Below are positions 3,449 through 42,506 of a stretch of 64,000 bases of DNA, piece after piece. Numbering within the stretch: the first letter of the stretch is position 1; the number at the start of each line of letters is the position of its first letter. Where the stretch lies: NCBI GenBank assembly GCA_030647005.1, contig JAUSKG010000022.1, positions 18,196-82,195 on the forward strand, written 5' to 3'. The position numbers and the translations under genes are program-made. This stretch comes from a bacterium. GTDB taxonomy: Bacteria; Patescibacteriota; Patescibacteriia; JACPHY01. The notes below the pieces were generated by a model. It saw nothing but the letters and a program-made list of their open reading frames with translations. It was not told the origin of the DNA and searched no databases.

Positions 3449-3782
3449 GCTGGTCGCAATGAGCCATGCTCACACTCACCGTTATACCCACTGCCGCTGG
3501 ATGGTTGATACGCACCGTCGGCGCTCCACTCGCTCCACGAACAATCTCAATACGTGCAAGAGGTATCGGCTGACACCCAAGAGCACCAAGGGCCTTCACC
3601 ACCGCCTCCTTTGCACTAAACCGCGCAGCAAGACGCTGCGCGGCAGGTTGCTGCGCGTACGCATCCGCAAGCTCCCCCACCGTGAAGATGCGCGCGAGCA
3701 TTCGACCATCACGCGCGCGATCAAGCTCGTAAAACCGCGCAATGGCGACGATATCAACGCCGGCACCAACCTGCGATCGCAC
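3363..3782 (-). CDS. 4'-phosphopantetheinyl transferase (AcpS-type)
   Basis: GAGVDIVAIARF ... FSAKEAVVKALG AcpS motifs. The start is probably the GTG/V about 13 nt after the GNAT stop; the ORF-track N-terminus is likely spurious. Confidence 0.6.
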   Translation of the reverse strand: MRSQVGAGVDIVAIARFYELDRARDGRMLARIFTVGELADAYAQQPAAQRLAARFSAKEAVVKALGALGCQPIPLARIEIVRGASGAPTVRINHPAAVGITVSVSMAHCDQHAIAYAIAYRVRSARQATTAQRAVRSYA

Positions 3783-3792
3783 GGACGTCCGC

Positions 3793-5783: not shown

Positions 5784-5795
5784 ACCTACGGAGCA

Positions 5796-9405: not shown

Positions 9406-9409
9406 AATG

Positions 9410-10453: not shown

Positions 10454-10908
10454 ACCGGTAGAGAGACATCTACGTCCTGGAATGCGACCCGTACCATGTG
10501 CATATGCGCCGCGCCCTGCTCCGGTGTCAGCTCGTGCACCGCATCGAGCACCGGCGCGCGCGGCCAGCCCGGATCCGTGAACGTCATCCCACCAAACTCC
10601 CTTGCCTCGCAATACCGTGGAAGAATCGCCGCGTGCGCCTCGGGCGTTGCCATCATGAGGAACAGGAGGTTTATGCGGTCGGGTGCAAACACCCGCGCGA
10701 GCGCATGCTCGACATCGCGCATGACCTGCGCGAATTCCGTCCATGCTTCCGACGTGATTCCACCAAGCGTCGTCGCGTCATCACGATACACCACAAGGAG
10801 CGCGCCGAGGGTGAGCGGCTTCCGTTGCACAAGAACGATCCAATGCATGTACTCGCGGACGAGTGTGTCCGGGTAACCAAATTTTTCCAGAACTGCAGAT
10901 GGGACCAT
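10450..10908 (-). CDS. HIT-like domain protein (degenerate histidine triad)
   Basis: The hydrophobic pattern matches the HIT fold, but the triad position reads EAHAAILPRY in place of HxHxH. Confidence 0.4.
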   Translation of the reverse strand: MVPSAVLEKFGYPDTLVREYMHWIVLVQRKPLTLGALLVVYRDDATTLGGITSEAWTEFAQVMRDVEHALARVFAPDRINLLFLMMATPEAHAAILPRYCEAREFGGMTFTDPGWPRAPVLDAVHELTPEQGAAHMHMVRVAFQDVDVSLPV

Positions 10909-10914
10909 AACGTT

Positions 10915-11898
10915 TTAGGGCGATGTACCGCGCATCAGTGGAGGAGCAGCCACCGTCGCACGCGACTGATACCACGCGTGTACTGCTTCTCGTACGGTCG
11001 CAAGCCGATCATACCGCTGCACCGCATCACGCAACGGCGTGCCGTCGTCCGCGAATGTCGCCTGGACAATCCAAAGCGCGCGATCCGCAGCGCATATGAG
11101 CATGCCGCGCTCGGTGATACGGTAGATGCGGCCTGGCTCGCCGTACATCGGAAGCGTTGCGAGTTCCGATCGGAGCAGTTGCACCTTCCGCCCGTCCGCG
11201 TAGGTAAACGCACATGGGTATGGCGCAGTGAGCGCGCGGATGCGGTTATGCGCCTCCTGTGCGGTGAGCTGATCCCAGAGGATAAGGCCGTCATCGGGAA
11301 ACCGAAGCGGGAGATACGCAGCGCGTGCCACATCCTGTACACGCAATGCAGCAGTCCCGTGTGCGAGCTGCTCCACCGCCGCCATGAGCATGACGGGAAA
11401 CTCACGTTCTGCAATCGTATGCAGGTCCACAATCGTATCATGCGCACCAATAGGAAACGTACGATCGAGAATGACATCGCCAGCATCCACGCCGCTCGCC
11501 ACTTTGATCACCGATAGCGTGAACGATGTTTCGCCGCGAATGAGCGCCCAGTTCATGGGGGAAGAGCCGCGATACTCGGGCAGCTTCCCGCCGTGCAGAT
11601 TGATCGTCATCACGAACGGAATATCAATGATGCGCTGCGCAATAATCTTCCCGTACCCGCCAAGCACGAAGAGATCTGCCCGGTACGCGCGGAGCTGCAA
11701 TGCCACAGCATCCGCGTTCGGATTCTCCGGAGCAATCACGGGAATACCGAATGCTGCTGCGACCGACCGAACGGACGTTGGGGAGTGTCCGGCATCATCC
11801 GGATGCACAACGACGCATGCAATTTCGTCTCCATGCTGTTGGAGCGCCCGCAGACACGCGACCCCGCGCGCGCCCTTCCCCCAAAAAACGATTCGCAT
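10915..11898 (-). CDS. formyltransferase (Fmt/PurN fold) 1, putative sugar N-formyltransferase
   Basis: MRIVFWGKG...; NLHGGKLPEYRGSSPMNWAL = N-x-H-x-x-LP-x-x-RG formyltransferase motif. Confidence 0.75.
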   Translation of the reverse strand: MRIVFWGKGARGVACLRALQQHGDEIACVVVHPDDAGHSPTSVRSVAAAFGIPVIAPENPNADAVALQLRAYRADLFVLGGYGKIIAQRIIDIPFVMTINLHGGKLPEYRGSSPMNWALIRGETSFTLSVIKVASGVDAGDVILDRTFPIGAHDTIVDLHTIAEREFPVMLMAAVEQLAHGTAALRVQDVARAAYLPLRFPDDGLILWDQLTAQEAHNRIRALTAPYPCAFTYADGRKVQLLRSELATLPMYGEPGRIYRITERGMLICAADRALWIVQATFADDGTPLRDAVQRYDRLATVREAVHAWYQSRATVAAPPLMRGTSP

Positions 11899-11911
11899 AC
11901 GCGCGTCCTCG

Positions 11912-12973
11912 TCACGCGGGCACCGCCGTCCTTGTGCGGGGCATCGCCACCGCCGCTGGCACGGCGAACGCAGGATGAAATCCCTTGTACCAACCAATGT
12001 ACCGCTCGTATCCACGCTCAAGCGGATGCTGCGGTGTGTACCCAATCATGCGACGCGCCTTCGCGACATCGAGCGTTCCGCGGTCTGGCATCAATGCGTC
12101 TTTCGGCTCGTAACGGACGGTAATACCGGGGAATTCCTTACGCACGACATCCGCAAGCTCTGCGATGGAACGGCCGGTGCCGTAGGTGAGATTGAACGTC
12201 TCGTTCTTTGCCTCTGGACGCGCAAGGACACACATGATGCCGTGCACGAGATCGTGTACACAGGTGAAATCGAGCCGATCCGTCCCGTCCCCTTGCACCA
12301 CAATGTCCTGCCCTGCGATCGCATTCTCGATGAAAATCTGCCCCACGCGGCGCGAGACGCACCGCTCGCCGTAGAGCGCAGACGGACGGACGATCGTATA
12401 CGGCAATCCAAACACCTGATGATAGGACTTCACGATAAGCTCTCCGGCGAGCTTCAGCGCGCCGTAAATACCCATGGGATGACACGGCGTATCTTCGGAC
12501 GCAAATCCATCCGGGAAATTTCCGTACACCATGGACGACGAGAAGTACACGAAGTGCTGCACATTCCCACGCGAGTAGTCGAGCGCATTCTCGAGCGTGC
12601 GGAGCGAGTGGTCAAACGTGCTATGCGGGTCCTTGTTCGAACGATTCGCGTGCGCGACCGCCGCGAGCTGGACAATGGCATCCGGTTGGATGCGCTTGAG
12701 CACTGCGGTGAGCGGATGATAATCGCGCGCATCCTGCACATAGAGCGGCACACCCGCGGCCTCGAGCAGCGCAAGTCGCTCGTGCAGGATACGCGTGTAC
12801 AACGCGCGGTGCTGCGTCACGCCTTCGCCGACAAATGCGAGGAGATTGTTGATTTGCAAACTATCCACGATCGCAACTTCCGCCCCCTCCGCGCGCAATC
12901 CGAGCGCGAGGTTATGGCCGATGAACCCTGCGCCGCCAATCAACGCAATGCGCCGTCCGCTCAAGAGTGCCAT
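11912..12973 (-). CDS. NAD-dependent sugar epimerase/dehydratase (extended SDR)
   Basis: IALIGGAGFIGHNL Rossmann; YGALK catalytic YxxxK. Confidence 0.8.
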   Translation of the reverse strand: MALLSGRRIALIGGAGFIGHNLALGLRAEGAEVAIVDSLQINNLLAFVGEGVTQHRALYTRILHERLALLEAAGVPLYVQDARDYHPLTAVLKRIQPDAIVQLAAVAHANRSNKDPHSTFDHSLRTLENALDYSRGNVQHFVYFSSSMVYGNFPDGFASEDTPCHPMGIYGALKLAGELIVKSYHQVFGLPYTIVRPSALYGERCVSRRVGQIFIENAIAGQDIVVQGDGTDRLDFTCVHDLVHGIMCVLARPEAKNETFNLTYGTGRSIAELADVVRKEFPGITVRYEPKDALMPDRGTLDVAKARRMIGYTPQHPLERGYERYIGWYKGFHPAFAVPAAVAMPRTRTAVPA

Positions 12974-12986
12974 ACGAACACAAGGT

Positions 12987-14177
12987 TTATGAAACAGCTA
13001 CCCGAAGAGGTTGCTGCACGACAACCGCCGCAATTGCTTCTGTCACCATCGCCGCAATGTACGCCATGTCATCTGTCGTGAGGTGCGGACCGACGGGGAG
13101 TGCGATGCCGTGATTGCTGATGCGCGCCGCGTGCGGGAATGTGTCGAGACCGTACCCGTACTTCGTGCGGAAGTAGGTGAGGTGCGGAACCGGGTGTGGA
13201 TAGTAGATGCTCGTGCCGACGCCGCGCGCCTTGAGCGCTGCCACAATCTCAAAGCGCCTCGGCGCGAGTGCATCCGAGAGCATCACGAGGCCGCAGTAGC
13301 GACTACTGACACCGTCGCCGTCACTCGTTGCGAGGAGCGCGATGCCGGGAATACGCGCGAGCGCGACGCGGAGCGCGTCGTCATTGCGCACACGCGCAGC
13401 AAGGAATCCGGGGACGCGCGTGAGCTGCACGGTGCCGATTGCCGCCTCGATCTCGTTCATCCGGTAATTGTACCCGAGCATCGTCACATCATAGATGCCG
13501 GGGATTGCCCGCTCGGTGACGGTCTTGTCCAGACCAAACGCACGCTGGCGACGCATATGCGCCGCGAGCGCGTCGTCGTTTGTCGTCACCATGCCGCCCT
13601 CGGCGGTCGTCATGTGCTTCACGGGATAGAACGAAAAGCAGCCAACGTCCCCAAACGTCCCCGCGTGCGCACCGCGGAACCACGTGCCGATCGCGAGCGC
13701 GCAATCCTCCACGACGAAAAGGCGGTGCCGATCCGCGATGGCGCGGACGCGATCCATGTCCACCGGCATGCCGAGGTAGTGGACGAGCGAGAGCGCGCGC
13801 GTTCGGGACGTAATCGCCACCTCCACCGCATCGAGATCTATGTTCCCCGTGCGCGGCTCTGCATCCACAAACACTGGTGTCGCGCCGACGTACTCCACGG
13901 CGAACGCGGTTGCCACATGCGTCTGTGCCGGCACGATCACCTCGTCGCCACGACCGATTCCAGCCGCAAGATACGCGAGGTGCAGACCTGTGGTGCAAGA
14001 GCTCACGGCGATCGCGTGCTTCACGCCGACAAATTCTGCAAAGCGATGCTCGAACTCCTCCACGCGCGGACCATGGACGAACGTCGAACCTGCGAGGACG
14101 TCCGCAACCGCCGCACGCTCTTCCGCACCGAGCAACGGTTTCCCAAAGGGAATAATCCGCGGAGCAGTGATTTGCAT
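12987..14177 (-). CDS. DegT/DnrJ/EryC1/StrS-family sugar aminotransferase
   Basis: HAIAVSSCTTGLHLA...GDEVIVPAQTHVATA...FSFYPVKHM. Start at MQITAPR. Confidence 0.8.
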   Translation of the reverse strand: MQITAPRIIPFGKPLLGAEERAAVADVLAGSTFVHGPRVEEFEHRFAEFVGVKHAIAVSSCTTGLHLAYLAAGIGRGDEVIVPAQTHVATAFAVEYVGATPVFVDAEPRTGNIDLDAVEVAITSRTRALSLVHYLGMPVDMDRVRAIADRHRLFVVEDCALAIGTWFRGAHAGTFGDVGCFSFYPVKHMTTAEGGMVTTNDDALAAHMRRQRAFGLDKTVTERAIPGIYDVTMLGYNYRMNEIEAAIGTVQLTRVPGFLAARVRNDDALRVALARIPGIALLATSDGDGVSSRYCGLVMLSDALAPRRFEIVAALKARGVGTSIYYPHPVPHLTYFRTKYGYGLDTFPHAARISNHGIALPVGPHLTTDDMAYIAAMVTEAIAAVVVQQPLRVAVS

Positions 14178-14263
14178 AGTGGCGTAGGTACTTGTCCGCA
14201 CCTGGCGCGGGAGCACCAGAGGATCAAAAGAGTGCGCATCATGCGCACTCTCATACAACGCAT

Positions 14264-15328
14264 CTATCGTACCGTAGTTGTGTGCGCGCGGGAAACGATC
14301 CCCATCTCCCGCTCTATCTCCACAACATCCACAGGTTCTCCACAGTCGGCGGACCGTTCGATTGCGAAGCAGGCCGCCATGGTCAGAAACGCATCATCTC
14401 CCGTAATGAGCGGATCACGTCCGTCGAGCACGGCGGTGATGAAGTCCGTCAAAAGATCGTACTTCGCGCACCCGGGATACGGCTGCTCCACCGCTGTCGG
14501 CGGCACCACGGGATCGCGGGAAGTGTAGTACCGCCCGTGCGGGAGATCGTTCACGAATGTCGCCCGTGTTCCATAGAGCGCAACCGGGTGGAAATGTGGC
14601 GCGACGCACCCAAAGTGCACGCCGACGGTCCCGATGATACCACTCGCAAACGTGAGTGTCGCGGTGATGGAGTCGCGGAAATGATACGGTGTGCCACGCG
14701 AGGCGATCTGGTTCCCGACCGCGAACACGCGCGTGATGTCATCACCCGTGAACCACCGCAAGAGATCAACCACATGGATCCCGCCACCATACACGACGGA
14801 GTAGAACGGGAGCCGCCCACGCCACCCATCGGTGATCTTCTGCAAGCGTCCGTACTGATAGCTCGCTTCCACCGCGAAAAGCTGACCGAACGCGCCCGCA
14901 TCGCACTGCTCCTTCACCCACCGGAACCGCTGCGAGGTGCGCAGGATGGTATTCGTGGAGAGCCGAAGGCCGGGATGTGCCGCGAGTGCGGCGCGAATAC
15001 GACATGCTTCCTCCACCGAATAGCACAGCGGCTTCTCCGCGAACACGTGCTTCCCGTGCGCAAGCGCAGTCAGGATCTGCGCCCCGTGCGCATCGTCGTA
15101 CGTTGCGATGACCACGCAGTCCACGTCTGGATCTGTGAGTACCGCATCGGCATCGCCGATGCGGCGTACGCCCGGAAATCGCGCGCCCACCTCCGCGAGC
15201 TTCGCTGGATCCCGATCGCAGAGCACCGCGAGTGTCGCACGCGGGTGCTGCAGGACGCCGATCGCGTGCTGCTCCCCGACGCCGAGTCCAATAACACCAA
15301 CACGAAACGATTCCATACACTCCTCCAT
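14264..15328 (-). CDS. Gfo/Idh/MocA-family oxidoreductase 2
   Basis: FRVGVIGLGVGEQH Rossmann; FAEKPL motif. Start at MEEC/MESF, preceded by GGAGGAG. Confidence 0.75.
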   Translation of the reverse strand: MEECMESFRVGVIGLGVGEQHAIGVLQHPRATLAVLCDRDPAKLAEVGARFPGVRRIGDADAVLTDPDVDCVVIATYDDAHGAQILTALAHGKHVFAEKPLCYSVEEACRIRAALAAHPGLRLSTNTILRTSQRFRWVKEQCDAGAFGQLFAVEASYQYGRLQKITDGWRGRLPFYSVVYGGGIHVVDLLRWFTGDDITRVFAVGNQIASRGTPYHFRDSITATLTFASGIIGTVGVHFGCVAPHFHPVALYGTRATFVNDLPHGRYYTSRDPVVPPTAVEQPYPGCAKYDLLTDFITAVLDGRDPLITGDDAFLTMAACFAIERSADCGEPVDVVEIEREMGIVSRAHTTTVR

Positions 15329-15330
15329 GT

Positions 15331-16038
15331 TCAATGAACGCTGTGGGTGCCCCCACGCTCGCCTTCGGGCACCATCGCAAGGATTTCCTCGTAATGGTAT
15401 GCGGTGTGCGAACGCTCCATCTGCTGCACGATCCGCACGAAGCGCTCCCAATCCTCCACCGTATCCACCGCGAGCTGCGCAGTACTGTTATCGTGCGACG
15501 CGCTGAAGTTCTTGATGCGGAACTCCTCTGGGTGCTGATAATAGTACCGCGTAACATGCTCGCGATCCAACGGATCCGTCATGCGCACATGCGCGCGTCG
15601 GAATGGCTCCGTGCGCACAACCTCCACGGAAACGCCCACGGGAAAACTCCGCGGAAACGTGTTCGTGACAAGATCATACTCGCTACCGCGAAACAATGCC
15701 ACCGCAGTCGAAATGACCGCAGGATCAGTGAGCGGGCTATCCCCGCACACGCGCACGAATGCGTCGAATTCGTGCGCGTCCGCAGCGGCAAAAAATCGCC
15801 CAGCGACGTCCACAAGTGAACCACGGAAGCACGGAATGCTCTTGTCCGCACAGAACGCAGCGATGGGATCATCGCTCGTTTCGTCCGACGTTGCCACGAT
15901 CACACCATCCACGCCGTGCGCAAGTGCAACACGCTCAAGTGTGTACAGAAGCATGGGCTTCCCCCCAAGGTCACGGAGCACCTTCCCCGGCAACCGTTGC
16001 GAGCTCATCCGTGCTTGAACGATGATGCCGATCGTCAT
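15331..16038 (-). CDS. CMP-sugar cytidylyltransferase (NeuA/PseF-like) 2
   Basis: MTIGIIVQARMSSQRLPGKVL motif. ATGA overlap with the upstream methyltransferase. Confidence 0.7.
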   Translation of the reverse strand: MTIGIIVQARMSSQRLPGKVLRDLGGKPMLLYTLERVALAHGVDGVIVATSDETSDDPIAAFCADKSIPCFRGSLVDVAGRFFAAADAHEFDAFVRVCGDSPLTDPAVISTAVALFRGSEYDLVTNTFPRSFPVGVSVEVVRTEPFRRAHVRMTDPLDREHVTRYYYQHPEEFRIKNFSASHDNSTAQLAVDTVEDWERFVRIVQQMERSHTAYHYEEILAMVPEGERGGTHSVH

Positions 16039-16943
16039 ACGTATGTTTGTGGTGCGGCTGGTACCGCAACCCCTTCGGGATAATATGCAACCGTTTCTGC
16101 ATGCCACCGCTCGAAAAAATTCTGCACCGCACGGTAATCGTCGCCAGTCCAAGGGATGGTTTCGTCGACATCGCGCCGCTCCGCGATCATACACAGAACG
16201 TCATGATCAATGTAGCGATTCGTCTGTCGCACCGCGAAGTGCGCAGTAGCGAGCTGTGCCGTGAGCGTCTGGGCGCTCCACCGGAACGCGTGACTATCCG
16301 CAGCACGACCCCCGAGGTAGTAGTGGAGCGGCTTCTTGAATGGGACGAAAATGCGACTGCCCGTTGCCACCACCACCTGCCCACCGGGCCGCAACATCCG
16401 GTGTGCTGCCGCGAGCATCGCGCGCGGCGACTGACAATTCTCCATGGTCCACGCGATGACCGCGATATCATACTGCCCTGCGGATGTTCCGCTTGCCGCA
16501 TACTCCTCAATGGTGCCACGGAAATTGGGAATACCAAGGGCTGTCATGCGCGCACAGTTCGCGCGCGACGGCTCAATACCAAACACGGCGGCTCCGTACT
16601 CCGACTGCCGGAGCATCTCGAGGAATACCCCCTCCCCTGCACCGATGTCGCACACACGCTTCCCCTGCAGCCCCCCGAGCTGCTCCGCCATGAACGCCGC
16701 GACGAACGTGAGCCGCGCCCGCACTGCCGGTAGGAGCGCGGTGTACCCGTTCCCATAAATCTGCTCTGACCACTCATCCGCAATCGCGCCCGCGGAGCGG
16801 CGTTGCTTCACATACACAAACCCGCACTGTATGCAGATATGAATCGGCTGCCCGCCCGTGTATTCGCGCGCATGCGGAACCTCCACGGCATCCGTGGTAC
16901 CACAAATGTCACAGGGAAAATCCATTGGGTCAGATTGGGACAT
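16035..16943 (-). CDS. class I SAM-dependent methyltransferase with N-terminal Zn-ribbon
   Basis: CDICG...CIQCG Cys pairs; VCDIGAGEG SAM motif I. Confidence 0.7.
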   Translation of the reverse strand: MSQSDPMDFPCDICGTTDAVEVPHAREYTGGQPIHICIQCGFVYVKQRRSAGAIADEWSEQIYGNGYTALLPAVRARLTFVAAFMAEQLGGLQGKRVCDIGAGEGVFLEMLRQSEYGAAVFGIEPSRANCARMTALGIPNFRGTIEEYAASGTSAGQYDIAVIAWTMENCQSPRAMLAAAHRMLRPGGQVVVATGSRIFVPFKKPLHYYLGGRAADSHAFRWSAQTLTAQLATAHFAVRQTNRYIDHDVLCMIAERRDVDETIPWTGDDYRAVQNFFERWHAETVAYYPEGVAVPAAPQTYV

Positions 16944-16951
16944 ACATTTGT

Positions 16952-16990
16952 GTCATTGCGAGGGAGTCCGCGACCAAAGCAATCCCGACC
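16952..16990. repeat. half-copy of GTCATTGCGAGG…GCAATCCCG palindromic repeat family (intergenic)
   Basis: gtcattgcgagggagtccgcgaccaaagcaatcccgacc. It shares about 30 of 35 nt with the copies inside leuS. Confidence 0.6.
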
Positions 16991-17082
16991 ACGACCAGAT
17001 GCAGGAGCTACGGCCGTTCCCCACCAATGATATCCAGCATTGCTTCGACGCGCGCAGCCGTGCTCCTCGCAATGACATCGAA

Positions 17083-18252
17083 TTACACTGGCGGAAACCG
17101 CAGCTGCCATTCCCCTCCCTCCTGCTTCCAAATCTCGGCATTTCGGTGCCGGTCAATGAGCGCGGTGAACTCCTGATCCGTGAGGTGGAGGTACGCGAGC
17201 ATGTCCTGGTAGTACCGCGCAGGAAACTCATGATCGTATGCGCGTGCGTGCGCGAGTCCCCGCTCCCGCGTGAGTTGCTTGTTCTGGATCATGCGACTCG
17301 CATCGCGTATCGCGCGGCCAAAACCAAACTTCACGTACTGCAGGTAGTAGTAGAGGTTGTCCGATTTGTCATCCAACGAATCAAAGTCCGTGAATGTTCC
17401 CTCCGTGCGCCCCTCGGCACACGTCTGAAAATCAATCTTATCCTTGATGTATTCGTAATTCTCAAAGCTGCTCCACTTGAAGAAATACGCGAAGTAGTAT
17501 GCGCGCACGCCGACGCGCTGGATGTCCTGGATGGCAGGATACCGATACGGGTTGAGGTCACGCTCCGTCACCACGTCATCCACCCAGTTGCGCGGATCGT
17601 CACCAATTTGATGCTCGATAACCTCGGTAAAATCCCGCACTTTCGCAGAATCCTCACGAAGCACCTTGCCGCCGTACTCGCTCTCGCCGTGCTCGGCGTA
17701 CAAAACGAGCGGGATGCCGTACCGCACCGCGGCCTGTACTGGCGTTGCGTTGATACCCGCATCCCACGCAATCTTATGATTGCCGCGCTCCAGAAAGAAT
17801 CGCCGCGCGAGATGCCGGTGGATACGCTGATCTGGACGAAGGAGATGATGATCAAACCCCGCCTGAATCATCGCCTCGTAGTTGTGCAGACCGACAGCCG
17901 TCGGAAGTTGTGGCGAGAACGTGACGAGGAGCGGATTCATCCCAAACTCATGCTTGAGCTTGTACGCGATGGCACTGCTGTCCTTCCCACCGCTCCACGG
18001 CACGATGCAATCCCACGATCCATCGTCCGCACGGTACTGATCGAGCAACGCGAGAAACTCCGCACGCCGCGCCGCCCAATCAATGCCATCCCACTTCCGC
18101 TCCGCATACCGACATGCATTGCACACGCCCTCTGCATCAAAAACGATGCGCGGACGCGAGTTGGGCATGACGCAACGCGTACAGTACTGAATCGTGCGGC
18201 CCCCATGTGCTGCGATGTCTTGCCGCGTGTGCGATGTGATCGTCATGTCCAT
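17083..18252 (-). CDS. N-acetyl sugar amidotransferase (WbuX/PseA-like PP-loop ATPase)
   Basis: YCTRCVMPNSRP...CNAC Zn-ribbon followed by SGGKDS PP-loop. Start trimmed to MDMTITSH. Confidence 0.8.
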   Translation of the reverse strand: MDMTITSHTRQDIAAHGGRTIQYCTRCVMPNSRPRIVFDAEGVCNACRYAERKWDGIDWAARRAEFLALLDQYRADDGSWDCIVPWSGGKDSSAIAYKLKHEFGMNPLLVTFSPQLPTAVGLHNYEAMIQAGFDHHLLRPDQRIHRHLARRFFLERGNHKIAWDAGINATPVQAAVRYGIPLVLYAEHGESEYGGKVLREDSAKVRDFTEVIEHQIGDDPRNWVDDVVTERDLNPYRYPAIQDIQRVGVRAYYFAYFFKWSSFENYEYIKDKIDFQTCAEGRTEGTFTDFDSLDDKSDNLYYYLQYVKFGFGRAIRDASRMIQNKQLTRERGLAHARAYDHEFPARYYQDMLAYLHLTDQEFTALIDRHRNAEIWKQEGGEWQLRFPPV

Positions 18253-18256
18253 ACAG

Positions 18257-19003
18257 TTACACGCGCACCGAAATCCCCGCCTTCGCAAGGTACGCCTTCG
18301 CGCTATGGATACTCGGCTCCGTGAAGTGATAAATATTCGCAGTGCACACCGCGGACGCATGGCCGTCGCGAAATCCGTCCACAAAATCCTGCCACTTGCC
18401 CGCGCCACCGCACACGAGTACCGGAACGTCCACGGCATCGGCGACGAGCTGGTTCAACGTATTGTCGTAGCCCTCCAATGACCCGTCCTTCTCCATGGAG
18501 GTGATCATGACCTCCCCCGCTCCGCGCGCTTGCGCTTCTCGCGCCCACGCCGCTGGATTGAGCCCTGTCGGTTGCGTCCCACACTCGGTATACACCTCGT
18601 AGGTCCCCTGCGCATTCCGCCTCGCATCCAAAGAAACAACGACGCACTGCGCTCCGTATGCCTGTGCGATCTCCGTGATAAACCCAGGCCGTTGCACTGC
18701 CACCGAATTCACCACCACCTTGTCGGCACCGCTCCGCAGGAGCTGCTGCACATCCTCCATCGTACGCACTCCGCCGCCCGCTGCCAATGGCACGAAACAG
18801 CGCTCCGAGAATTGCTCCACCACTGCAAGAAAATGCTCACGCACACCCAACCCGGGACGGGTGATATCGAGGAGCACCACTTCATCTACAGACCATGCGT
18901 CCACAAAACTCGCCGTGTAGCGGTAGTCCGGTTGAAACTCCTTCGTCCGAAACAGCACGCCGTCATTGAACGTAAGGACGGTGACAACACGATTACGCAA
19001 CAT
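18257..19003 (-). CDS. imidazole glycerol phosphate synthase cyclase-subunit homolog (HisF/WbuZ-like)
   Basis: Full-length HisF-like (beta/alpha)8 signature (…VPLAAGGGVRT…VVNS…). Confidence 0.85.
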   Translation of the reverse strand: MLRNRVVTVLTFNDGVLFRTKEFQPDYRYTASFVDAWSVDEVVLLDITRPGLGVREHFLAVVEQFSERCFVPLAAGGGVRTMEDVQQLLRSGADKVVVNSVAVQRPGFITEIAQAYGAQCVVVSLDARRNAQGTYEVYTECGTQPTGLNPAAWAREAQARGAGEVMITSMEKDGSLEGYDNTLNQLVADAVDVPVLVCGGAGKWQDFVDGFRDGHASAVCTANIYHFTEPSIHSAKAYLAKAGISVRV

Positions 19004-19625
19004 ACGAGCGCGCAGGCATTTGCAACAAAAAATTCTTCAGGAACTGCAATCCATGCTGCTGACTCTTCTCCGGATGAAACTGTGTTGCGACAATGTTTTT
19101 TTGCTGGAACGCGGCCGTGAAACGCGACCCGTACTCGCATTCCCCCACAACGATTGTGGAATCATCGCATCGAATGTGAAAACTATGGACATAATAAAAC
19201 AGCGCGTCGGTAGGAATGCCATCAAACAGCGGGGACTGTTGCGTGCGGATGCAATCGTTCCATCCGACATGCGGCACGCGCAGCCCATCCGGCGGCGCAA
19301 GGCGTACTACATCCGCAGCGATCCATCCCAGTCCTTCATGGTGACCAAATTCCTCACTCGATCGCGCGAAAAGCTGCGCGCCGAGGCAGACGCCAAGGAT
19401 GGGTTTCTGCTGGTGCAAGATGAGATCGGTGAGCGGCTCCACGAGATTACGCGTGCGGAGATTCGCCATGCCATCGCCAAACGCGCCCACGCCCGGCAGG
19501 ATGAGCGCCTCGGCGCGCTGCAGCTCTGCGGGGTCCGCCGTAACGATTGGCACGAACCCTACCCGCGCAACCGCCGCCGCGACCGAACGGATATTCCCGA
19601 GACCGTAGTCAATGATGGCAACCAT
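18993..19625 (-). CDS. glutamine amidotransferase HisH/WbuY-like
   Basis: MVAIIDYGLGNIRSV...GVCLGAQL (catalytic Cys)...FHPEKS. Confidence 0.85.
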   Translation of the reverse strand: MVAIIDYGLGNIRSVAAAVARVGFVPIVTADPAELQRAEALILPGVGAFGDGMANLRTRNLVEPLTDLILHQQKPILGVCLGAQLFARSSEEFGHHEGLGWIAADVVRLAPPDGLRVPHVGWNDCIRTQQSPLFDGIPTDALFYYVHSFHIRCDDSTIVVGECEYGSRFTAAFQQKNIVATQFHPEKSQQHGLQFLKNFLLQMPARSYVA

Positions 19626-19728
19626 ACGCGCACGACGGACGACACCGTATCTTGGACCAGCGTACCGCACGAGCGCGCGCCCGCAAGAGAAACGGACGGC
19701 CCATGAGGAGCCGTCCGTTCAGACACCG

Positions 19729-20637
19729 TCAGAACACAATGAAGATAATTGCGCAGCCCGCGATGCCGATGGCGAACCGTGCGTACACCCCGCGCCCGAG
19801 GCCCTGCGCCTCCTTGAACACGATGAGGCCGACCATGGTCGGAATCACCATTTCCGCGACCTGCTTGATCGGCTGGACGACGGTGATTGGTGCCAGCGAT
19901 TGCGACCACGTCCACATGAATAGTGCAATGGCAATCGTGGAAGCGAGGAGCAGCATACCGCGGATACCGCGCGCATCGAGCGGCGCTCCTGCTTCCGCAC
20001 GTCCGAGGAGGAACCGAATGCTCAACGCGCCGACGTATGACCCAAGGTACCACGCGGCGACGAAGCTCGGCACGGACACTCCCTCGAGCGCAAACACGCG
20101 CATGGCGAAGTGCCCGAATCCCCAGATGACGCTGTACCCCGCGATCCACAGCGCGAGCTGCTTCCATGGGAATGTCGCTGCAGGTACCGCTACACCATCT
20201 GCACCGCGATACCGCGCCACGGAGATTGCCGTGCCGCCAGCGATGGCAACCGCGACGCCGGTCGCAAGCAGTGCAGAGTCGGCGAGGTGCGCATACTCGT
20301 GGAGCACGAAGTACCCGAGTGCCATCGCGATGAAGTCGTCCGCCTGCGTGAAGAGGTATGTCCGACTCACGCTGATGTCCACGGCACGCCATTGACAGTA
20401 CGCGCCCAAGCTGTTCACGAATCCGATGGCACCGATTGCAAGGGTCCATGTCCCGACGATCGGCGCACCCACGATCCACGCGAACAGCACGGCGTAGCAC
20501 GCCGCAAACCCGAACATCCACACCATGCGCCGCGTCCGCGATGGAAGCCCTGTCGCACGCTTGATGAGGATTGGATTCACGACCATCGTGAAGAGTCCCA
20601 ACGATATCGGCAATTGCCAAGGAACCACTTCCATCAC
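19729..20637 (-). CDS. EamA/DMT-family 10-TM membrane transporter
   Basis: About ten hydrophobic helices across two halves. The overlapping 436-aa Arg-rich ORF on the same strand is spurious. Confidence 0.6.
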   Translation of the reverse strand: MMEVVPWQLPISLGLFTMVVNPILIKRATGLPSRTRRMVWMFGFAACYAVLFAWIVGAPIVGTWTLAIGAIGFVNSLGAYCQWRAVDISVSRTYLFTQADDFIAMALGYFVLHEYAHLADSALLATGVAVAIAGGTAISVARYRGADGVAVPAATFPWKQLALWIAGYSVIWGFGHFAMRVFALEGVSVPSFVAAWYLGSYVGALSIRFLLGRAEAGAPLDARGIRGMLLLASTIAIALFMWTWSQSLAPITVVQPIKQVAEMVIPTMVGLIVFKEAQGLGRGVYARFAIGIAGCAIIFIVF

Positions 20638-20702: not shown

Positions 20703-22295
20703 TCAATCGGACGACGGGAGGAGGTACCGATCGAGAAATGCCGTGTCGGTGGGATCGGCGGGCTGTGCGACCGCATCGCACAGCGCACGCGCATCGAATA
20801 CCACTCGCGCACGATCGTCGCAGGCCGCACGGACGATACGCACGCGCCGCGCAAGGAGCGCGAGCGCATCGGGGAATGGTGGTGCGGGGTCGCCGTCCAC
20901 CAACAGTGCCACTATCGGTTTGGTCGTGCAGAGTGCGATGGGAAACGCGGTGGTGCGCATGCTCCCGAATACGAACGCATCCGCGTGGGTATGCGCGGTG
21001 TGAAAGTCCTCCGCGAGCACCTCGGCGCGCCCATCAAACATCCCTCGCACTTCCGCGAGACGATCTGGGTGCGCCTTGTAGACAACACCGTACCCGGCAT
21101 CGCGGAGTGCTTCGATGATGCGGAGTTCGAGGTCCAACTGCTGGAGCCCAAGCGACGCGGCGGCAGTGTACTTACGTTGTGCGTTCTGCGGAAATCCGAT
21201 GACCATGACGCGACGGATGCGCGCCGCTGCAGGGACCGGGCGCATGCGCTGCCGGATTGCGCGATAGATACCGCTCACGCCCGATACAATTGTGAGCGGG
21301 TTTGGCACGATGGGAAGCCGCGCGCGATGGATGCGACGGCAGAGATCGGCACTCCCATCGGTGTAGGTGACGTAGGTATCCGAGAGCGCGAACTCGGACC
21401 ATGTTGGCATCGCGGTGTTGAAGAGCCCTACGAATCCCCCGTGCGCAGCCGTCATCACGCGCCCGCCACGCTCCCGCACGGCGAGCGCGAGTGCGCGTTG
21501 GCGATGCTGCGTCGCCGATCCAAGCGCAACGTGCGCGACGGCATGGGCTGCAACGAATGCGCGCATCTGCAGCAGCATGCGGACTGCATCCACGAGCATT
21601 GCGTCCGTCCGCGTACGGAGTACATCACGGAACGCATCATCGGTAGGAATCGCGTACTGCTGAGCGATACCGGTACACGCATCCACCAACGACGCGGCAG
21701 CGATGCGCAGGGCCGCGCGTACACCAACAGGACAATCGGGCATCGGGGGAAGCGCGTCGTTGTACAGCGTCCGAACCCACTCCGGGGTGTGCGCGAGGTA
21801 CTCCGCGAGAAGCGCATGCGGTGCTCCTGCAACCCATATCCGACGTTCGGAGCGGACGCGCGCCGCCATCTTCACCGCAGTTGCATTCGCGGCAATTCCG
21901 CGCCCCCATCGCACCAGCCGAACCGCAGGCACCATCCACACGGCGCGCGCGGCACCGACGGATGCCGTAAATGATGCGGCGTGCCCGAGTGCCTCCGCAA
22001 ACCACGCGGCGGCTGGCTGGCACACGGGCTCATGCCCCGCCGCACGCACGCGCACCACCACCGCGCGCGCGTGGAGCATGTGCACGAGCGTGACCGGAAG
22101 CTCGCGCGCGATGAGCAGCGCGGCACCGACATCCCCCGGCGTGGCGGCAATGGCGGATCGCACGGATCCTTCCACTGCATCGGCTAACGCAATAAATTCG
22201 TGGTCCGGGACGGGCCACGAGCATGTCTCGCGCCAGCGATCAACGCCGAATGCTTTCACGGAGCCGATGTCGAGGGGGAACTCGCGGGTTGCCAT
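20703..22295 (-). CDS. KpsC/KpsS-like (Capsule_synth-like) putative glycosyltransferase 2
   Basis: C-terminal VVYKAHPDRLAEV...ADAFVFGSMRTTAFPIALCTTKPIVAL resembles the K-x-HP retaining keto-sugar-acid transferase core. Assignment is weak. Confidence 0.4.
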   Translation of the reverse strand: MATREFPLDIGSVKAFGVDRWRETCSWPVPDHEFIALADAVEGSVRSAIAATPGDVGAALLIARELPVTLVHMLHARAVVVRVRAAGHEPVCQPAAAWFAEALGHAASFTASVGAARAVWMVPAVRLVRWGRGIAANATAVKMAARVRSERRIWVAGAPHALLAEYLAHTPEWVRTLYNDALPPMPDCPVGVRAALRIAAASLVDACTGIAQQYAIPTDDAFRDVLRTRTDAMLVDAVRMLLQMRAFVAAHAVAHVALGSATQHRQRALALAVRERGGRVMTAAHGGFVGLFNTAMPTWSEFALSDTYVTYTDGSADLCRRIHRARLPIVPNPLTIVSGVSGIYRAIRQRMRPVPAAARIRRVMVIGFPQNAQRKYTAAASLGLQQLDLELRIIEALRDAGYGVVYKAHPDRLAEVRGMFDGRAEVLAEDFHTAHTHADAFVFGSMRTTAFPIALCTTKPIVALLVDGDPAPPFPDALALLARRVRIVRAACDDRARVVFDARALCDAVAQPADPTDTAFLDRYLLPSSD

Positions 22296-24758: not shown

Positions 24759-25888
24759 ACGGATGCAGTGCGTATGGACGCCGGCTCGCGCCGCGCTTCC
24801 GACTGCGACGCGACGATTGCGGCGGTGTGCGCAGCGAACCGGAGCGCATGAAGAAAGAGCAGCGTGCTCGCGTGACGGAACGCAGTTGCCTCGCCATCCA
24901 CGAACTCCACCGCCCGCTCGTAGTTTGCGGACACGCCACGGAGGAGGCACTGCAGGTACGAGAGTCGAAACCGAAGGCGCATGCGTCCATCGGCAAACCG
25001 CGGATCGAGCGCGACGAGCGCATCGTCCGTCGGAGCAACGAATGGCGCAAATTGTTCGACGTAGTGGCGGTATGCAACTTCGGGCCAGAGGAACGTGATG
25101 CGGAAATCGGGCGCACCGGACGTGTAGAGCGACGAGCGGATGAGGTACTGCTGGTAATCCGCGGTGTCATGGGGGAACGTGTATGCGAACCGTGCGACGC
25201 CGTAGAGCGGATCCGCCGTCGCCATACGCACGTCCGGATCAATCACCCGAAACGCGGCGGCACGCGCGAGGTCTTCGAGCACAAGATTGTCGCCGTGGAA
25301 ATTCCAGTGGCCAAGGGATGCGATATCCGACGGCCCGGTGTCGAGTGCGCCCACCGCATTGGAGGTGAGGATGCGATCCACGAGCACGGCGAGCGGCGCG
25401 TACCGGACGCCGTCCAAGGTCACTCCGTCCGCAGCGAGGAGGTACGGAAACGGCTCCAATGCGCGGACGGCATCAAGCTCGCCGCGGAGCGCCGTGCGAA
25501 AATAGCGACCCGTTCCGCCGTCGTACGCGGGATCCGGACAATGCTCTGCGGCGATGTCGAGGAGCGCCGCGAGCACGGTGCGAAATGCAGCGGCAAGCTC
25601 GTCGGATGCCGTGAGCACGCTCTGCGTGTGCTCCGAAAACGTACGTCCGGCGAGCCGGGGCATGACGTAGGATTCTTTTCCGCGGAAGACCCCCGCAGTG
25701 CACACCCCCGCCGCGAGGATGGGCGGGAGCCGGTAACGGAGCGACGTATACGCACCGAGAGCGCGGATGCGTGCCACCTCCGCGCGGAGCTGCGCACCAT
25801 CGCCGAGCGCAATCTTCACGACGCGCTCACCGCCTGGCACACCAACCACCGCAATGCAGTACTTGTCAGACGATTTGAGAATGCGCAT
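24755..25888 (-). CDS. phosphotransferase (APH/choline-kinase-like) family protein
   Basis: HWNFHGDNLVL and VIDPD match the H-x-D catalytic loop and DxD motif. Confidence 0.5.
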   Translation of the reverse strand: MRILKSSDKYCIAVVGVPGGERVVKIALGDGAQLRAEVARIRALGAYTSLRYRLPPILAAGVCTAGVFRGKESYVMPRLAGRTFSEHTQSVLTASDELAAAFRTVLAALLDIAAEHCPDPAYDGGTGRYFRTALRGELDAVRALEPFPYLLAADGVTLDGVRYAPLAVLVDRILTSNAVGALDTGPSDIASLGHWNFHGDNLVLEDLARAAAFRVIDPDVRMATADPLYGVARFAYTFPHDTADYQQYLIRSSLYTSGAPDFRITFLWPEVAYRHYVEQFAPFVAPTDDALVALDPRFADGRMRLRFRLSYLQCLLRGVSANYERAVEFVDGEATAFRHASTLLFLHALRFAAHTAAIVASQSEARREPASIRTASV

Positions 25889-27080
25889 GCATGGGGGCAA
25901 CAGACGGCATCGTACGCGCGGCGCGCGACAGCGTCGTGAAACACTCGGGACGAGTAGCGGTGGTGAGGTACCGAACGGCGTCGAGCACACTCCGGCAGTA
26001 CCCGCGAACATTGTGCACATACGCTTGCACGAGCAGCTCGCTCACCGGGTTTCCACCGATCCCGAACGCATCATCGCTCCACTGGAGGAACCGCTCACTC
26101 GCAAGGACCACTGCGGATGCACGACATCGCTCAAACCCGCGGCTCCCGAGCGGCACATCCGCCATGCGCAGCGTGTGCGGGAGACGCACCGCAGTGTCCG
26201 CAAACGCCGCTGCGACATCGCGGTGCGTGATACGAACGCCGCTCGCGGTCCGGTAGCGGAGGAAAAATCGCGAGAGCTGGTACCCTGGCGGCATGATGAG
26301 CGTCCGAAGGGCGACGGTGTTCACGCCGGGCACTTCGGGAAAGAGTGTCGCCATCGCCATCTCGAGCTGCGAAAAACTCGGCCGGAGATTGTTCCGAGCA
26401 TCTTGGCTCCGCGCCTCAAATGATTTGGTCCCGAGGCGTCCGGTCGGTGTATCCGGGTGCACGATATCTACCTCGAGCCGACGGATATCCCACTGGGAGA
26501 CATCCATGCGCTCCGCGAGTTCGAGTAGTCCGCGGAGTTGCGCCGCCCACCCGTTGCTCTGACAAGACCCCAGTGCGAAGACGCGATCCGCACCAATCGA
26601 CCGCAACGGGTTCGGGAGGAACCGCGACGGCGCGCCGATGAGGTTGATGTACAGCGACGGGAGCTGTGCTGCCTCGGCAACGCCCACAACGAATCGCGCC
26701 ACGTCCGTGAACCGGCGGATGACGGCGTCGTCCCCGATCTCCTTCTTTGAAGTCGCCAGGATCGCAACGGCGTACCGCTCGCCCAGTGCAGTGAGGTCCG
26801 CCGTCTGGCTATCGCCCCACACAACACGAATGAGATGACCGCGGACGACGAGCGCCTGCTGCACGCGATCGACGCGGACGACATCAAGAAGCTCCGGCTC
26901 CGCGAGCACAATGCGCGCGTAGAGGGCATCGAGCGCATCGAGGTGCGGGTGCTTTGTATCGCCCTCAATGGGATGCGTCAGGATCGTCGTGATGCGGAAG
27001 CCGTCTGCCGCGGGATCGTTCATCGCAACGAGCGACGCGCCGATTTCGGCACCGCAGCCAATGAGGAGGACACGGTTCAT
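25866..27080 (-). CDS. GAPDH/semialdehyde-dehydrogenase-like NAD(P)-binding dehydrogenase
   Basis: N-terminal VLLIGCGAEIG Rossmann; GSCQSNGWAAQL resembles the catalytic Cys loop (SCTTNCLAP) of GAPDH/ASADH. Confidence 0.45.
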   Translation of the reverse strand: MNRVLLIGCGAEIGASLVAMNDPAADGFRITTILTHPIEGDTKHPHLDALDALYARIVLAEPELLDVVRVDRVQQALVVRGHLIRVVWGDSQTADLTALGERYAVAILATSKKEIGDDAVIRRFTDVARFVVGVAEAAQLPSLYINLIGAPSRFLPNPLRSIGADRVFALGSCQSNGWAAQLRGLLELAERMDVSQWDIRRLEVDIVHPDTPTGRLGTKSFEARSQDARNNLRPSFSQLEMAMATLFPEVPGVNTVALRTLIMPPGYQLSRFFLRYRTASGVRITHRDVAAAFADTAVRLPHTLRMADVPLGSRGFERCRASAVVLASERFLQWSDDAFGIGGNPVSELLVQAYVHNVRGYCRSVLDAVRYLTTATRPECFTTLSRAARTMPSVAPMHAHSQIV

Positions 27081-38425: not shown

Positions 38426-42400
<3,975 letters not shown>

Positions 42401-42442
42401 CACGTCCTCCGTCGTTCCGTTGTTCTGTTGTGAAGGAGCTCC

Positions 42443-42490: not shown

Positions 42491-42506
42491 CGCGTCGCAA
42501 CGCGCC

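Follow-up and report, generated by a model that had tools for sequence, protein, structure and literature searches.

A HisH-like, HisF-like and NASAT gene trio, very probably an acetamidino synthase, in a nonulosonic-acid gene island of an uncultured bacterium

In the stretch of DNA analysed here (64,000 nucleotides, hereafter the window), two genes resembling the glutaminase and cyclase subunits of imidazole glycerol phosphate synthase lie directly beside a gene for a sugar amidotransferase. This raises the question of whether the three proteins act together on a sugar and, if so, on which sugar and toward which product. Three contiguous minus-strand reading frames were found exactly where an earlier note on this DNA had placed a WbuX/WbuY/WbuZ-type trio, and all three of its family assignments hold in terms of model scores and PDB matches. 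The contiguity it described stands, whereas the order it gave does not, since transcription runs from the hisH-like gene through the hisF-like gene to the amidotransferase:

18993-19625, minus strand: HisH-like (WbuY-type) class-I glutamine amidotransferase, 210 aa, starting MVAIIDYG; predicted NH3-releasing glutaminase
18257-19003, minus strand: HisF-like (beta/alpha)8 barrel without the cyclase Asp11, 248 aa; proposed ammonia conduit
17083-18252, minus strand: N-acetyl sugar amidotransferase (NASAT) of the WbuX/WbpG/PtmG/PseA family, 389 aa, starting MDMTITSH; PP-loop and Zn ribbon

The hisF-like start lies within the hisH-like gene, an overlap of 11 nt, and 4 nt separate the hisF-like stop from the NASAT start codon. 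Genes called independently on an identical Logan contig have the same products of 210, 248 and 389 aa. An alternative upstream GTG start is possible for the hisH-like gene at 19670, and the mechanical NASAT reading frame reaches 18438, its extra part overlapping the hisF-like gene. Given the observed family membership, motifs, loss of Asp11, separation from the histidine enzymes, synteny and fusion, the trio is very probably a glutamine-dependent acetamidino (acetimidoyl) synthase.

The NASAT protein passes the WbuX model TIGR03573 with 331.1 bits (cut-off 203.2, E 9e-99), covering model positions 2-343 of 344. The Pfam search of this protein returned zero matches, and its identification comes from NCBIfam and the PDB only. 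The closest solved structure is LpNASAT of Legionella pneumophila (8WEX; E 4e-68, 39.9% identity over 351 columns), which has the same PP-loop and Zn tetracysteine; LpNASAT is longer, at 468 aa, and has both an extension at its N-terminus and a disordered insert at 55-69 that is not found in other family members. The motifs of the family are an SGGxDS PP-loop and a tetracysteine Zn site (PMC10607449). Both are present, as the earlier note had seen: the former as SGGKDS, and the latter, of the form CxxC-Xn-[GN]xCxxC, as CTRC...GVCNAC (CTRCVMPNSRPRIVFDAEGVCNAC), with the same spacing in close relatives.

The HisH-like protein likewise bears out its assignment as a glutaminase. It scores 232.2 bits against TIGR01855 (cut-off 105.4), a model that does not tell WbuY-type proteins from histidine-pathway HisH, and it also matches GATase PF00117. 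Its best solved match is the HisH structure 4GUD (E 2e-43), and the Cys-His-Glu triad is present, with the cysteine in GVCLGAQ and His-Pro-Glu-Lys in QFHPEKS.

In order to place the trio among its relatives, 28 related loci (L002-L029) were considered, from Omnitrophota, Desulfobacterota, Elusimicrobiota, Fibrobacterota, Chloroflexota, Proteobacteria and one Thermoplasmatota archaeon. HisH, HisF and NASAT adjoin in most of them, and in L028 and L029 the HisF-like protein and NASAT form a single fused protein of ~686 aa. This synteny and the two fusions indicate the three genes are functionally tied. A close relative, L002, has NASAT and the methyltransferase described below but neither HisH nor HisF closer than 8 kb, which suggests that this ammonia supply can be dispensed with or replaced. 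In L006, what looked like an AsnB-HisH fusion, along with a long HisF reading frame, was rejected as a stop-free alternative-frame artefact of high-GC DNA. A scan of genome contigs returned no relative above 85%, and the nearest one was partial only.

Two characterised systems provide the closest parallels for the trio as a whole. In E. coli O145, WbuX/WbuY/WbuZ match the trio protein type by protein type, lie side by side in a glycan locus and are involved in L-FucNAm formation. Compared by means of the family models TIGR03573 and TIGR03572, NASAT passes as WbuX, whereas the HisF-like protein scores best on WbuZ yet remains below its cut-off (232.7 against 299.7 bits); furthermore, the order here is hisH-hisF-NASAT, and the context is one of nonulosonic-acid genes rather than the FucNAc pathway. 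In P. aeruginosa O5, WbpG is likewise a NASAT with a dedicated HisH2/HisF2 paralogue pair. A HisF2-WbpG contact was found by co-immunoprecipitation, and ammonia delivery was proposed (PMC11445079); the HisF-NASAT fusions make the same point. The differences are that the WbpG substrate is UDP-ManNAc3NAcA (PMC10607449), and that the HisF-like protein of the window fails the AglZ/HisF2 model NF038364 (188 bits, cut-off 310).

Directly downstream of NASAT, 139 nt past its stop codon, lies a fourth gene:

16035-16943, minus strand: Zn-ribbon class-I SAM methyltransferase, 302 aa (296 aa with NCBI's start), with Methyltransf_23, Methyltransf_11 and Methyltransf_12 matches

This partner is absent from the earlier note. 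A methyltransferase directly follows NASAT in 13 of the 28 related loci, its homologues share contigs with HisF-like homologues, and its CxxC..CxxC motif is invariant. In Campylobacter jejuni and C. coli (PtmG, Cj1324; PtmH, Cj1325; PseA), a NASAT is followed by a methyltransferase among leg/neuB genes, as it is here. PtmG converts CMP-Leg5Ac7Ac to CMP-Leg5Am7Ac, and the adjoining PtmH N-methylates that product, so that Leg5Am7Ac is followed by Leg5AmNMe7Ac (PMC3766260; bioRxiv 10.64898/2026.04.20.719630). Since the order of NASAT and methyltransferase mirrors ptmG-ptmH, an N-methyl-acetimidoyl product is hinted at: by this analogy, the methyltransferase probably modifies the same nucleotide sugar as NASAT, and possibly N-methylates the amidine as PtmH does. 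We know of no dedicated HisH/HisF pair beside the ptmG, ptmH or pseA genes of Campylobacter.

The methyltransferase might instead spare the amidine, to which we give a little less than an even chance; it would then C- or O-methylate the nucleotide sugar or serve an unrelated step, and the product would be a plain acetamidino sugar. The fold search of its structural model (pLDDT 88.8) against the PDB returned only NDP-sugar C-methyltransferases and generic class-I methyltransferases. The best matches are the NDP-sugar C-3-methyltransferases MtmC, KijD1 and TcaB9 (TM 0.63-0.70, 15-19% identity), which have the N-terminal Zn ribbon in common with it, and O-methylated nonulosonic acids have been reported (bioRxiv 10.64898/2026.04.20.719630). 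Yet the ~100-aa C-terminal domain of the C-3-methyltransferases is missing (296 against ~405 aa), the gene keeps to NASAT in the loci and contigs counted above, and genes adjoining in this way give N-methyl-acetimidoyl groups in C. jejuni and Legionella (PMC3766260). As modelled, the fold matches point to a nucleotide-sugar-type architecture and are silent on the site of methylation.

As for the substrate, the sugar block that accompanies the trio in other phyla spans 4434-16038 on the minus strand. Its genes, according to Pfam and NCBIfam matches, are:

15331-16038, minus strand: CTP_transf_3
14264-15316, minus strand: GFO oxidoreductase
12987-14258, minus strand: DegT aminotransferase
11912-12973, minus strand: SDR dehydratase-like
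10915-11898, minus strand: formyltransferase
10450-10908, minus strand: HIT
9410-10453, minus strand: NeuB3
7585-9405, minus strand: AsnB amidotransferase
6815-7594, minus strand: second CTP_transf_3
5796-6818, minus strand: second GFO
4434-5783, minus strand: second DegT

The same set flanks the HisH-HisF-NASAT-methyltransferase genes in L004, L006, L010, L011 and L015, among others. The earlier note had related the trio to NeuB and PseB genes, and both are found in the window; the conserved partner of the trio is the third NeuB gene, with formyltransferase, AsnB, SDR, DegT and GFO, and not the distant PseB/PseC. The Pse5Ac7Am-like or Leg5Am-like product the earlier note predicted is plausible. 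Given the NeuB3, CTP_transf_3, SDR, DegT and formyltransferase genes, the substrate would most likely be a CMP-activated 5,7-diamino nonulosonic acid.

The nearby GFO/DegT pairs are as close to hexuronic-acid chemistry of the WbpB/WbpE kind as to that of nonulosonic acids, and it could be argued that the synthase acts on a UDP-linked hexosamine or hexuronic acid, like WbuX (FucNAm) or WbpG (ManNAc3NAmA). The characterised WbuX and WbpG do work in hexose pathways (PMC10607449), the co-transferred block has two such WbpB/WbpE-type pairs of GFO_IDH_MocA and DegT, and acetimidoyl UDP-HexNAc forms are reported in the SugarBase preprint (bioRxiv 10.64898/2026.04.20.719630). We consider this improbable, however: in the conserved cassette a NeuB-family synthase and CTP_transf_3 cytidylyltransferases are always beside the trio, the sole solved homologue comes from Legionella, whose O-antigen is Leg5Am7Ac (PMC3766260), and the order of NASAT and methyltransferase copies that of the legionaminic acid pathway.

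Whichever sugar is modified, the HisF-like barrel has to be set apart from that of histidine biosynthesis. Its match to His_biosynth PF00977 is strong (E 1.5e-51), and the HisF/HisH model check proposed in the earlier note succeeded in that respect and for HisH, yet the barrel stays below both the WbuZ and the hisF cut-offs. WbuZ is its best-scoring NCBIfam model, only 9 bits above hisF TIGR00735 (223.9 bits, cut-off 294.55), which T. maritima HisF, taken as a control, passes with 355.8 bits. Of six other NASAT-associated HisF-like proteins that were scanned, four from the loci and two close homologues, none reaches the WbuZ cut-off, while all NASAT-adjacent copies scanned score higher on WbuZ than on hisF. 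Hence, given scores below the WbuZ, AglZ/HisF2 and hisF cut-offs, the term WbuZ-type stands for analogous function inside the same clan of paralogues and not for equivalog membership.

The residues are more telling. Asp11 in T. maritima numbering, which we take to be the catalytic residue of the HisF cyclase, is replaced by threonine in the HisF-like protein; its 120 closest homologues have threonine at this position in 116 cases and aspartate in none, and T, L, V or I occupies it in 22 of 23 NASAT-adjacent HisF-like proteins from L003-L029. The ammonia-gate residues R5/E46/K99/E167 are kept, nearly invariant among the 120 homologues, together with D98 and D130. Most phosphate-binding loops are also retained, and differences from T. 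maritima HisF occur at K19, S201, L222 and S225. In a neighbour-joining tree of 108 HisF domains, the 47 proteins with Asp11 make up a single clan without any intruder, and the HisF-like protein lies outside it; 46 of 50 bootstraps recover this clan exactly, and the remainder admit no more than three intruders. Asp11 is present in all HisA-HisF and HisH-HisA-HisF fusions among the representatives, and these fall inside the clan. The separation is less clean in the HisH tree: the HisH-like protein is at distances of 0.61 and 0.96 from NASAT-adjacent copies, against 1.14 from HisH domains fused to an Asp11 HisF, with an unstable clan boundary (1-6 intruders across 100 bootstraps). Finally, the annotated open reading frames of the 64-kb window include neither hisA nor hisB nor any other his gene.

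Judged by its sequence, the HisF-like protein does not belong to the histidine enzymes, and the outcome the earlier note had named as refuting, a grouping with true histidine enzymes together with nearby his genes, was not observed for it. That the pair is a genuine imidazole glycerol phosphate synthase lying beside a sugar gene by chance was rejected as extremely improbable: an identical protein bears the public annotation "imidazole glycerol phosphate synthase cyclase subunit", its matches to solved HisF structures have E-values of 1e-49 to 1e-59, the hisF model gives it 223.9 bits, and HisH passes TIGR01855, but the hisF cut-off is missed, Asp11 is lost throughout the close clade, the tree places the protein outside the clan of the histidine fusions, other his genes are absent from the annotated reading frames of the window, and the barrel adjoins NASAT across phyla and is fused to it in two loci. 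Close homologues are, in addition, labelled Uhrbacteria and Woesearchaeota, lineages that to our knowledge usually lack histidine biosynthesis, and the bacterium itself, being probably CPR, may have no histidine pathway whatsoever.

In comparison with the imidazole glycerol phosphate synthase HisH/HisF (T. maritima 1GPW), the HisH-like and HisF-like pair has the same folds, glutaminase triad, gate quartet and Asp98, and presumably the same channelling logic. The differences are the missing Asp11, the separate clan, and an ammonia acceptor that is proposed to be another enzyme in place of PRFAR. What we infer in this reading is that ammonia is channelled and ATP spent, which sugar is the substrate and where the methyl group goes. 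The HisH-like subunit would hydrolyse glutamine via its Cys-His-Glu triad, and the ammonia set free would pass along the channel at the core of the HisF-like barrel, with Asp98 as the putative contact to HisH. Since the gate and Asp98 are kept and Asp11 is lost, the barrel would be a conduit and docking adaptor rather than an imidazole-glycerol-phosphate cyclase. The PP-loop of NASAT would then spend ATP, giving AMP and PPi, to activate the carbonyl of the sugar N-acetyl group, and ammonia would displace the activated oxygen to yield sugar-NH-C(=NH)CH3. On the use of ATP, the authors of 8WEX "speculate", and our literature search returned no report of a reconstituted NASAT reaction.

Asp130 and most phosphate-binding loops being retained, the barrel may have a role beyond passive channelling. 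We tentatively entertain, as a doubtful extension, that the trio is the core of a horizontally spread cassette of ~13 genes (GFO, DegT, SDR, formyltransferase, NeuB, AsnB, HisH, HisF, NASAT, Zn-ribbon methyltransferase, DegT, CTP_transf_3, GFO) present in many uncultured lineages, including CPR/Patescibacteria and archaea. The product of such a cassette would be a nonulosonic-acid derivative not described before, bearing for instance N-formyl and N-methyl-acetimidoyl substituents and perhaps one more amino or amide group, and its Asp11-less barrel would do more than conduct ammonia, for instance helping to hold the CMP-sugar.

The trio is a module of a well-known kind, found here within a large island of genes for sialic-acid-like sugars; the bacterium is uncultured and probably belongs to the CPR. 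The locus adds little to the mechanism. The island exceeds 33 kb and comprises three NeuB paralogues and genes for acetimidoyl, methyl, formyl and possibly glyceroyl tailoring; the genome is probably of Patescibacteria, the neighbours of its LeuRS, a single marker, pointing to Uhrbacteria/Patescibacteria. Our literature search found nothing on nonulosonic acids in Patescibacteria, which is no proof of novelty. An acetamidino group is positively charged, and with it an acidic surface sugar becomes zwitterionic and net-neutral; such groups alter hydrophobicity, phage binding and antigenicity in Campylobacter and Legionella. The locus also concerns annotation: a very large clade of 248-aa proteins, including those of CPR and DPANN bins, is publicly labelled HisF or cyclase subunit. 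Given this clade is without Asp11 and belongs to sugar amidation, it should not count as evidence of histidine biosynthesis in metabolic reconstructions. The natural HisF-NASAT fusions, in turn, provide a handle for structural work on the route of ammonia to NASAT.

A minor observation concerns the upstream end of the trio. Pfam and NCBIfam returned no match for the proteins encoded at 19729-20637 (302 aa, membrane-like), 20703-22295 (530 aa) and 32945-33991, and in a scan of 11-24 kb for sigma-70 promoters and terminators, the terminators were not above shuffle expectation. By eye, one feature was spotted in the gap that separates the membrane-protein gene upstream from the start of the hisH-like gene:

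19685-19719, minus strand: G+C-rich hairpin with a U-rich tail

The surrounding 61 nt (19672-19732) fold with -31.1 kcal/mol, a z of -3.3 against shuffles, and the hairpin is a possible candidate for a transcription-unit boundary.

Three contiguous minus-strand reading frames lie exactly where the earlier note had placed a WbuX/WbuY/WbuZ-type trio for acetamidino sugar formation. The contiguity it described stands; the order does not, given the genes are transcribed as hisH, hisF, amidotransferase.

19625..18993, minus strand: HisH-like glutaminase gene, 210 aa, with an alternative GTG start at 19670
19003..18257, minus strand: HisF-like barrel gene, 248 aa
18252..17083, minus strand: PP-loop N-acetyl sugar amidotransferase (NASAT) gene, 389 aa; the mechanical ORF reaches 18438, the extra part overlapping hisF

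The HisH-like and HisF-like genes overlap by 11 nt, the NASAT ATG lies 4 nt past the HisF stop, and independent gene calls on an identical Logan contig yielded products of 210, 248 and 389 aa. The profile searches proposed beforehand place the NASAT (331 bits against TIGR03573, WbuX; cut-off 203) and the HisH-like protein (232 bits against TIGR01855; cut-off 105) above their cut-offs, and the HisF-like protein matches PF00977 with an E of 1.5e-51. The NASAT carries both predicted motifs, the SGGKDS PP-loop and the Zn-ribbon tetracysteine CTRC...GVCNAC, and is a member of its family by all sequence criteria. A strong hairpin with a U-rich tail (19685-19719, minus strand) closely follows the stop codon of the upstream gene (302 aa, membrane-like) and precedes the hisH-like ATG by about 60 nt; the 61-nt stretch 19672-19732 folds at -31.1 kcal/mol (z -3.3), and a consensus terminator scan did not pick the hairpin up.

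The HisF-like protein falls below the curated score of the WbuZ, AglZ/HisF2 and HisF equivalogs alike, with NCBIfam scores of 232.7 bits for WbuZ (cut-off 299.7), 223.9 for hisF (294.55) and 188 for AglZ/HisF2 (310). The control, a T. maritima HisF sequence that acts as a true HisF in these searches, scores 355.8 with hisF and 271.6 with WbuZ. The WbuZ score exceeds the hisF score in four NASAT-adjacent HisF-like proteins from other loci and in two close homologues, none of the six reaching either cut-off. When aligned to solved HisF structures, the protein has Thr (VLTFNDG versus CLDVKDG) at the position of Asp11 (T. maritima numbering), the catalytic residue of the HisF cyclase. In the 120 nearest cluster representatives, which are 66-83% identical, this position is Thr in 116 and Asp in none; R5, E46, K99, E167, D98 and D130 show little or no variation, and S225 is usually replaced by Asn. 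Of the 23 NASAT-adjacent HisF-like proteins of related loci in other genomes (L003-L029), 22 have T, L, V or I at the Asp11 position.

A full-library search with the HisF-like protein returned 12,637 relatives with E no higher than 0.001. A neighbour-joining tree was computed from the window protein, T. maritima HisF, six locus copies and full-length domains of 100 representatives. It gathers the 47 sequences that have Asp11 into a single clan free of Asp-less intruders; 46 of 50 bootstraps recovered this clan exactly, and the others admitted three intruders at most. Because the HisA-HisF and HisH-HisA-HisF fusions among the representatives all have Asp11, this clan represents the genuine histidine pathway. 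The window protein lies on the opposite side of the tree with 60 Asp-less sequences. Members of that clan retain the four gate residues, D98, D130 and the glycine-rich loops that bind phosphate, and vary at K19, S201, L222 and S225. HisH gives a weaker signal: in its tree, the window copy is nearer to copies beside a NASAT than to HisH domains that form part of a fusion with Asp11-bearing HisF, and the clan boundary is unstable. Among the annotated ORFs of the 64-kb window, the HisF, HisH and NASAT of the trio are the sole copies, and further his genes are absent. A histidine-pathway HisF is rejected on the sub-cut-off hisF score, the Thr at Asp11, the tree and the absence of other his genes from the annotated ORFs. 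Grouping with histidine enzymes near his genes, which the earlier note had named as the outcome contrary to its reading, was not found, because the protein lies outside the Asp11 clan and the annotated ORFs hold no other his gene. By sequence, it is a member of the same Asp11-less paralogue clan, in a sub-clade missed by all three models (WbuZ, AglZ/HisF2, HisF). The public label on this Asp11-less clade (the window protein and its 120 closest homologues, P0001-P0120, Uhrbacteria and Woesearchaeota bins included) is [quoted passage not shown], likely a systematic mis-annotation, which could inflate predicted histidine biosynthesis.

A scan for NASAT relatives, with one genome per species, yielded 28 loci, the closest 59-70% identical and one partial at 85%. 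Their hosts are Omnitrophota, Desulfobacteraceae, Desulfovibrionaceae, Elusimicrobiota, Fibrobacterota, Dehalococcoidia, Neomarinimicrobiota, Alpha- and Betaproteobacteria and a Thermoplasmatota archaeon, a scatter that marks horizontal transfer. Where the flank is long enough, the NASAT nearly always has HisH and HisF homologues next to it, and in two loci HisF and NASAT are fused.

L028, 7083-9176: HisF-NASAT fusion in a Rhodoferax bin, one ORF of about 686 aa
L029, 3092-5263: HisF-NASAT fusion in a Sulfuritalea bin, one ORF of about 686 aa

These fusions match WbuZ (270 bits) and WbuX (292 bits), have Leu at the Asp11 position and a linker of about 50 aa, and can serve directly as constructs for structural work on how ammonia is handed over. 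The acetamidino-sugar reading of the trio is thus supported by family matches, Asp11 loss, tree, synteny and fusions. In L026 (5255-9266) and L027 (5164-9257), a single HisH-HisF pair lies between two NASAT genes (28% and 33% identical to the window NASAT), as if one ammonia supply served two amidotransferases. L002 (Omnitrophota chromosome CP070797.1, 8001-11156) has a close NASAT (69% identity) and a methyltransferase; the 8 kb flanking them on each side contain neither a HisH nor a HisF homologue. Evidently, the ammonia-supply pair is not essential. Taken together, the shared pair and the locus lacking one fit a dispensable, shareable ammonia-supply module. Locus L015 has an additional, distant NASAT (14897-15946).

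The trio belongs to an already known type of system, and would work like E. coli O145 WbuXYZ, P. aeruginosa O5 WbpG/HisH2/HisF2 and methanogen AglXYZ; together with the adjacent methyltransferase, it resembles PtmG/PtmH. The NASAT is 39.9% identical to the Legionella enzyme 8WEX, for which the PP-loop and Zn tetracysteine were described as defining the family and a conversion of ATP to AMP + PPi was proposed, not demonstrated (PMC10607449). In P. aeruginosa, co-immunoprecipitation showed HisF2 binding WbpG, which backs the older proposal that HisH2/HisF2 feed ammonia to WbpG (PMC11445079). Because of the likeness to 8WEX with its ATP proposal and of the HisF2-WbpG interaction, the most likely mechanism is one in which the HisH-like subunit would hydrolyse glutamine, the ammonia would transit the putatively cyclase-dead HisF-like barrel, and the NASAT would form an amidine on the sugar N-acetyl group in an ATP-dependent manner.

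16035-16943, minus strand: Zn-ribbon class-I methyltransferase (METHYLTRANSFERASE), 302 aa, directly after the NASAT

A methyltransferase follows the NASAT in 13 of the 28 related loci, as it does in the window, and its homologues share contigs with HisF-like homologues. The best fold matches of its model (pLDDT 88.8) are NDP-sugar C-3-methyltransferases with the same Zn-ribbon N-domain (TM 0.63-0.70, 15-19% identity), which points to a nucleotide sugar as substrate, the fold leaving the methylated atom undefined. The gene order is that of C. jejuni ptmG-ptmH and follows the logic of Legionella ORF28/ORF8, where PtmH and the Legionella methyltransferase N-methylate the acetimidoyl group, yielding Leg5AmNMe7Ac (PMC3766260; bioRxiv 10.64898/2026.04.20.719630). 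The odds that the product here is N-methyl-acetimidoyl are put at roughly even.

One large glycan island, more than 33 kb in size, spans 1378-37565 of the window (about 1.4 to 37.6 kb).

Further genes of the glycan island and its border
1378-1641, minus strand: acyl carrier protein (ACP)
1604-3448, minus strand: FkbH-like HAD protein
3363-4049, minus strand: phosphopantetheinyl transferase
3793-4440, minus strand: GNAT
6815-7594, 15331-16038 and 29181-29963: CTP_transf_3 cytidylyltransferases
9410-10453 (NeuB3), 28156-29226 and 29960-31114: NeuB paralogues
10450-10908, minus strand: HIT-domain protein, between SDR and NeuB3
10915-11898, minus strand: formyltransferase (Formyl_trans_N + Formyl_trans_C), between SDR and NeuB3
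19729-20637 (302 aa), 20703-22295 (530 aa), 25866-27080 (404 aa) and 32945-33991 (348 aa), minus strand: ORFs without Pfam or NCBIfam match
33988-36513, minus strand: PseC fused to a glutamate-1-semialdehyde-2,1-aminomutase-like class-III aminotransferase, 841 aa
within the island: PseB (above the TIGR03589 cut-off), DUF218+GNAT protein, ATP-grasp protein, AsnB-type amidotransferase, two pairs of GFO_IDH_MocA oxidoreductase (GFO) and DegT, SDR
38426-42745, minus strand: protein of 1439 aa, carrying 8 or more Cu-binding_MopE repeats (PF11617, 242 bits), immediately beyond PseB

The PseC fusion passes both TIGR03588 (450 bits) and NF004856 (550 bits). The NeuB paralogues at 29960-31114 and 28156-29226 score below both curated NCBIfam cut-offs (NeuB, PseI) and NeuB3 is assigned by Pfam, none of the three being confirmed as NeuB or PseI. 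In the relatives, the cassette runs GFO, DegT, SDR, formyltransferase, NeuB, AsnB, HisH, HisF, NASAT, methyltransferase, DegT, CTP_transf_3, GFO (fullest in L006, L011 and L015). Since this order is conserved and every cassette gene is present at 4434-19625 of the window, with the trio and methyltransferase shifted upstream of CTP_transf_3, the evolutionary partner of the trio is, judging by gene order, NeuB3 with its neighbours, not PseB/PseC. The PseB/PseC genes are about 15 kb away.

The best guess for the trio's substrate, by analogy, is a nonulosonic acid, probably in its CMP-activated form as in Campylobacter; the stereochemistry of this acid and its remaining N-acyl groups are beyond what sequence can tell. 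The formyltransferase, kept in the cassette of the same three fullest loci, suggests an N-formyl group on the sugar. An FkbH-like/ACP/phosphopantetheinyl transferase/GNAT set typically serves to form glyceroyl-ACP; the one here could place an N-glyceroyl-type acyl group onto a nonulosonic acid, as in Pse5Am7Gra. The island's gene content suggests several differently tailored nonulosonic acids. The four unmatched ORFs are candidates for glycosyltransferase, transporter or PseG-like steps otherwise missing, and the MopE-repeat protein may be a surface protein and a target of glycosylation.

In the library searched, no paper treats Patescibacteria together with nonulosonic acids. The residual value of the locus lies in the HisF mis-annotation, in the naturally occurring fusions of HisF with NASAT, and in the as yet unexplored nonulosonic-acid chemistry of what is probably a CPR organism. 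The best named relatives of the LeuRS (47930-50515) are Candidatus Uhrbacteria and other Patescibacteria, at 55-64% identity, and by this single marker the host is probably a CPR bacterium. The G+C content of the window is about 61%, unusually high for CPR.
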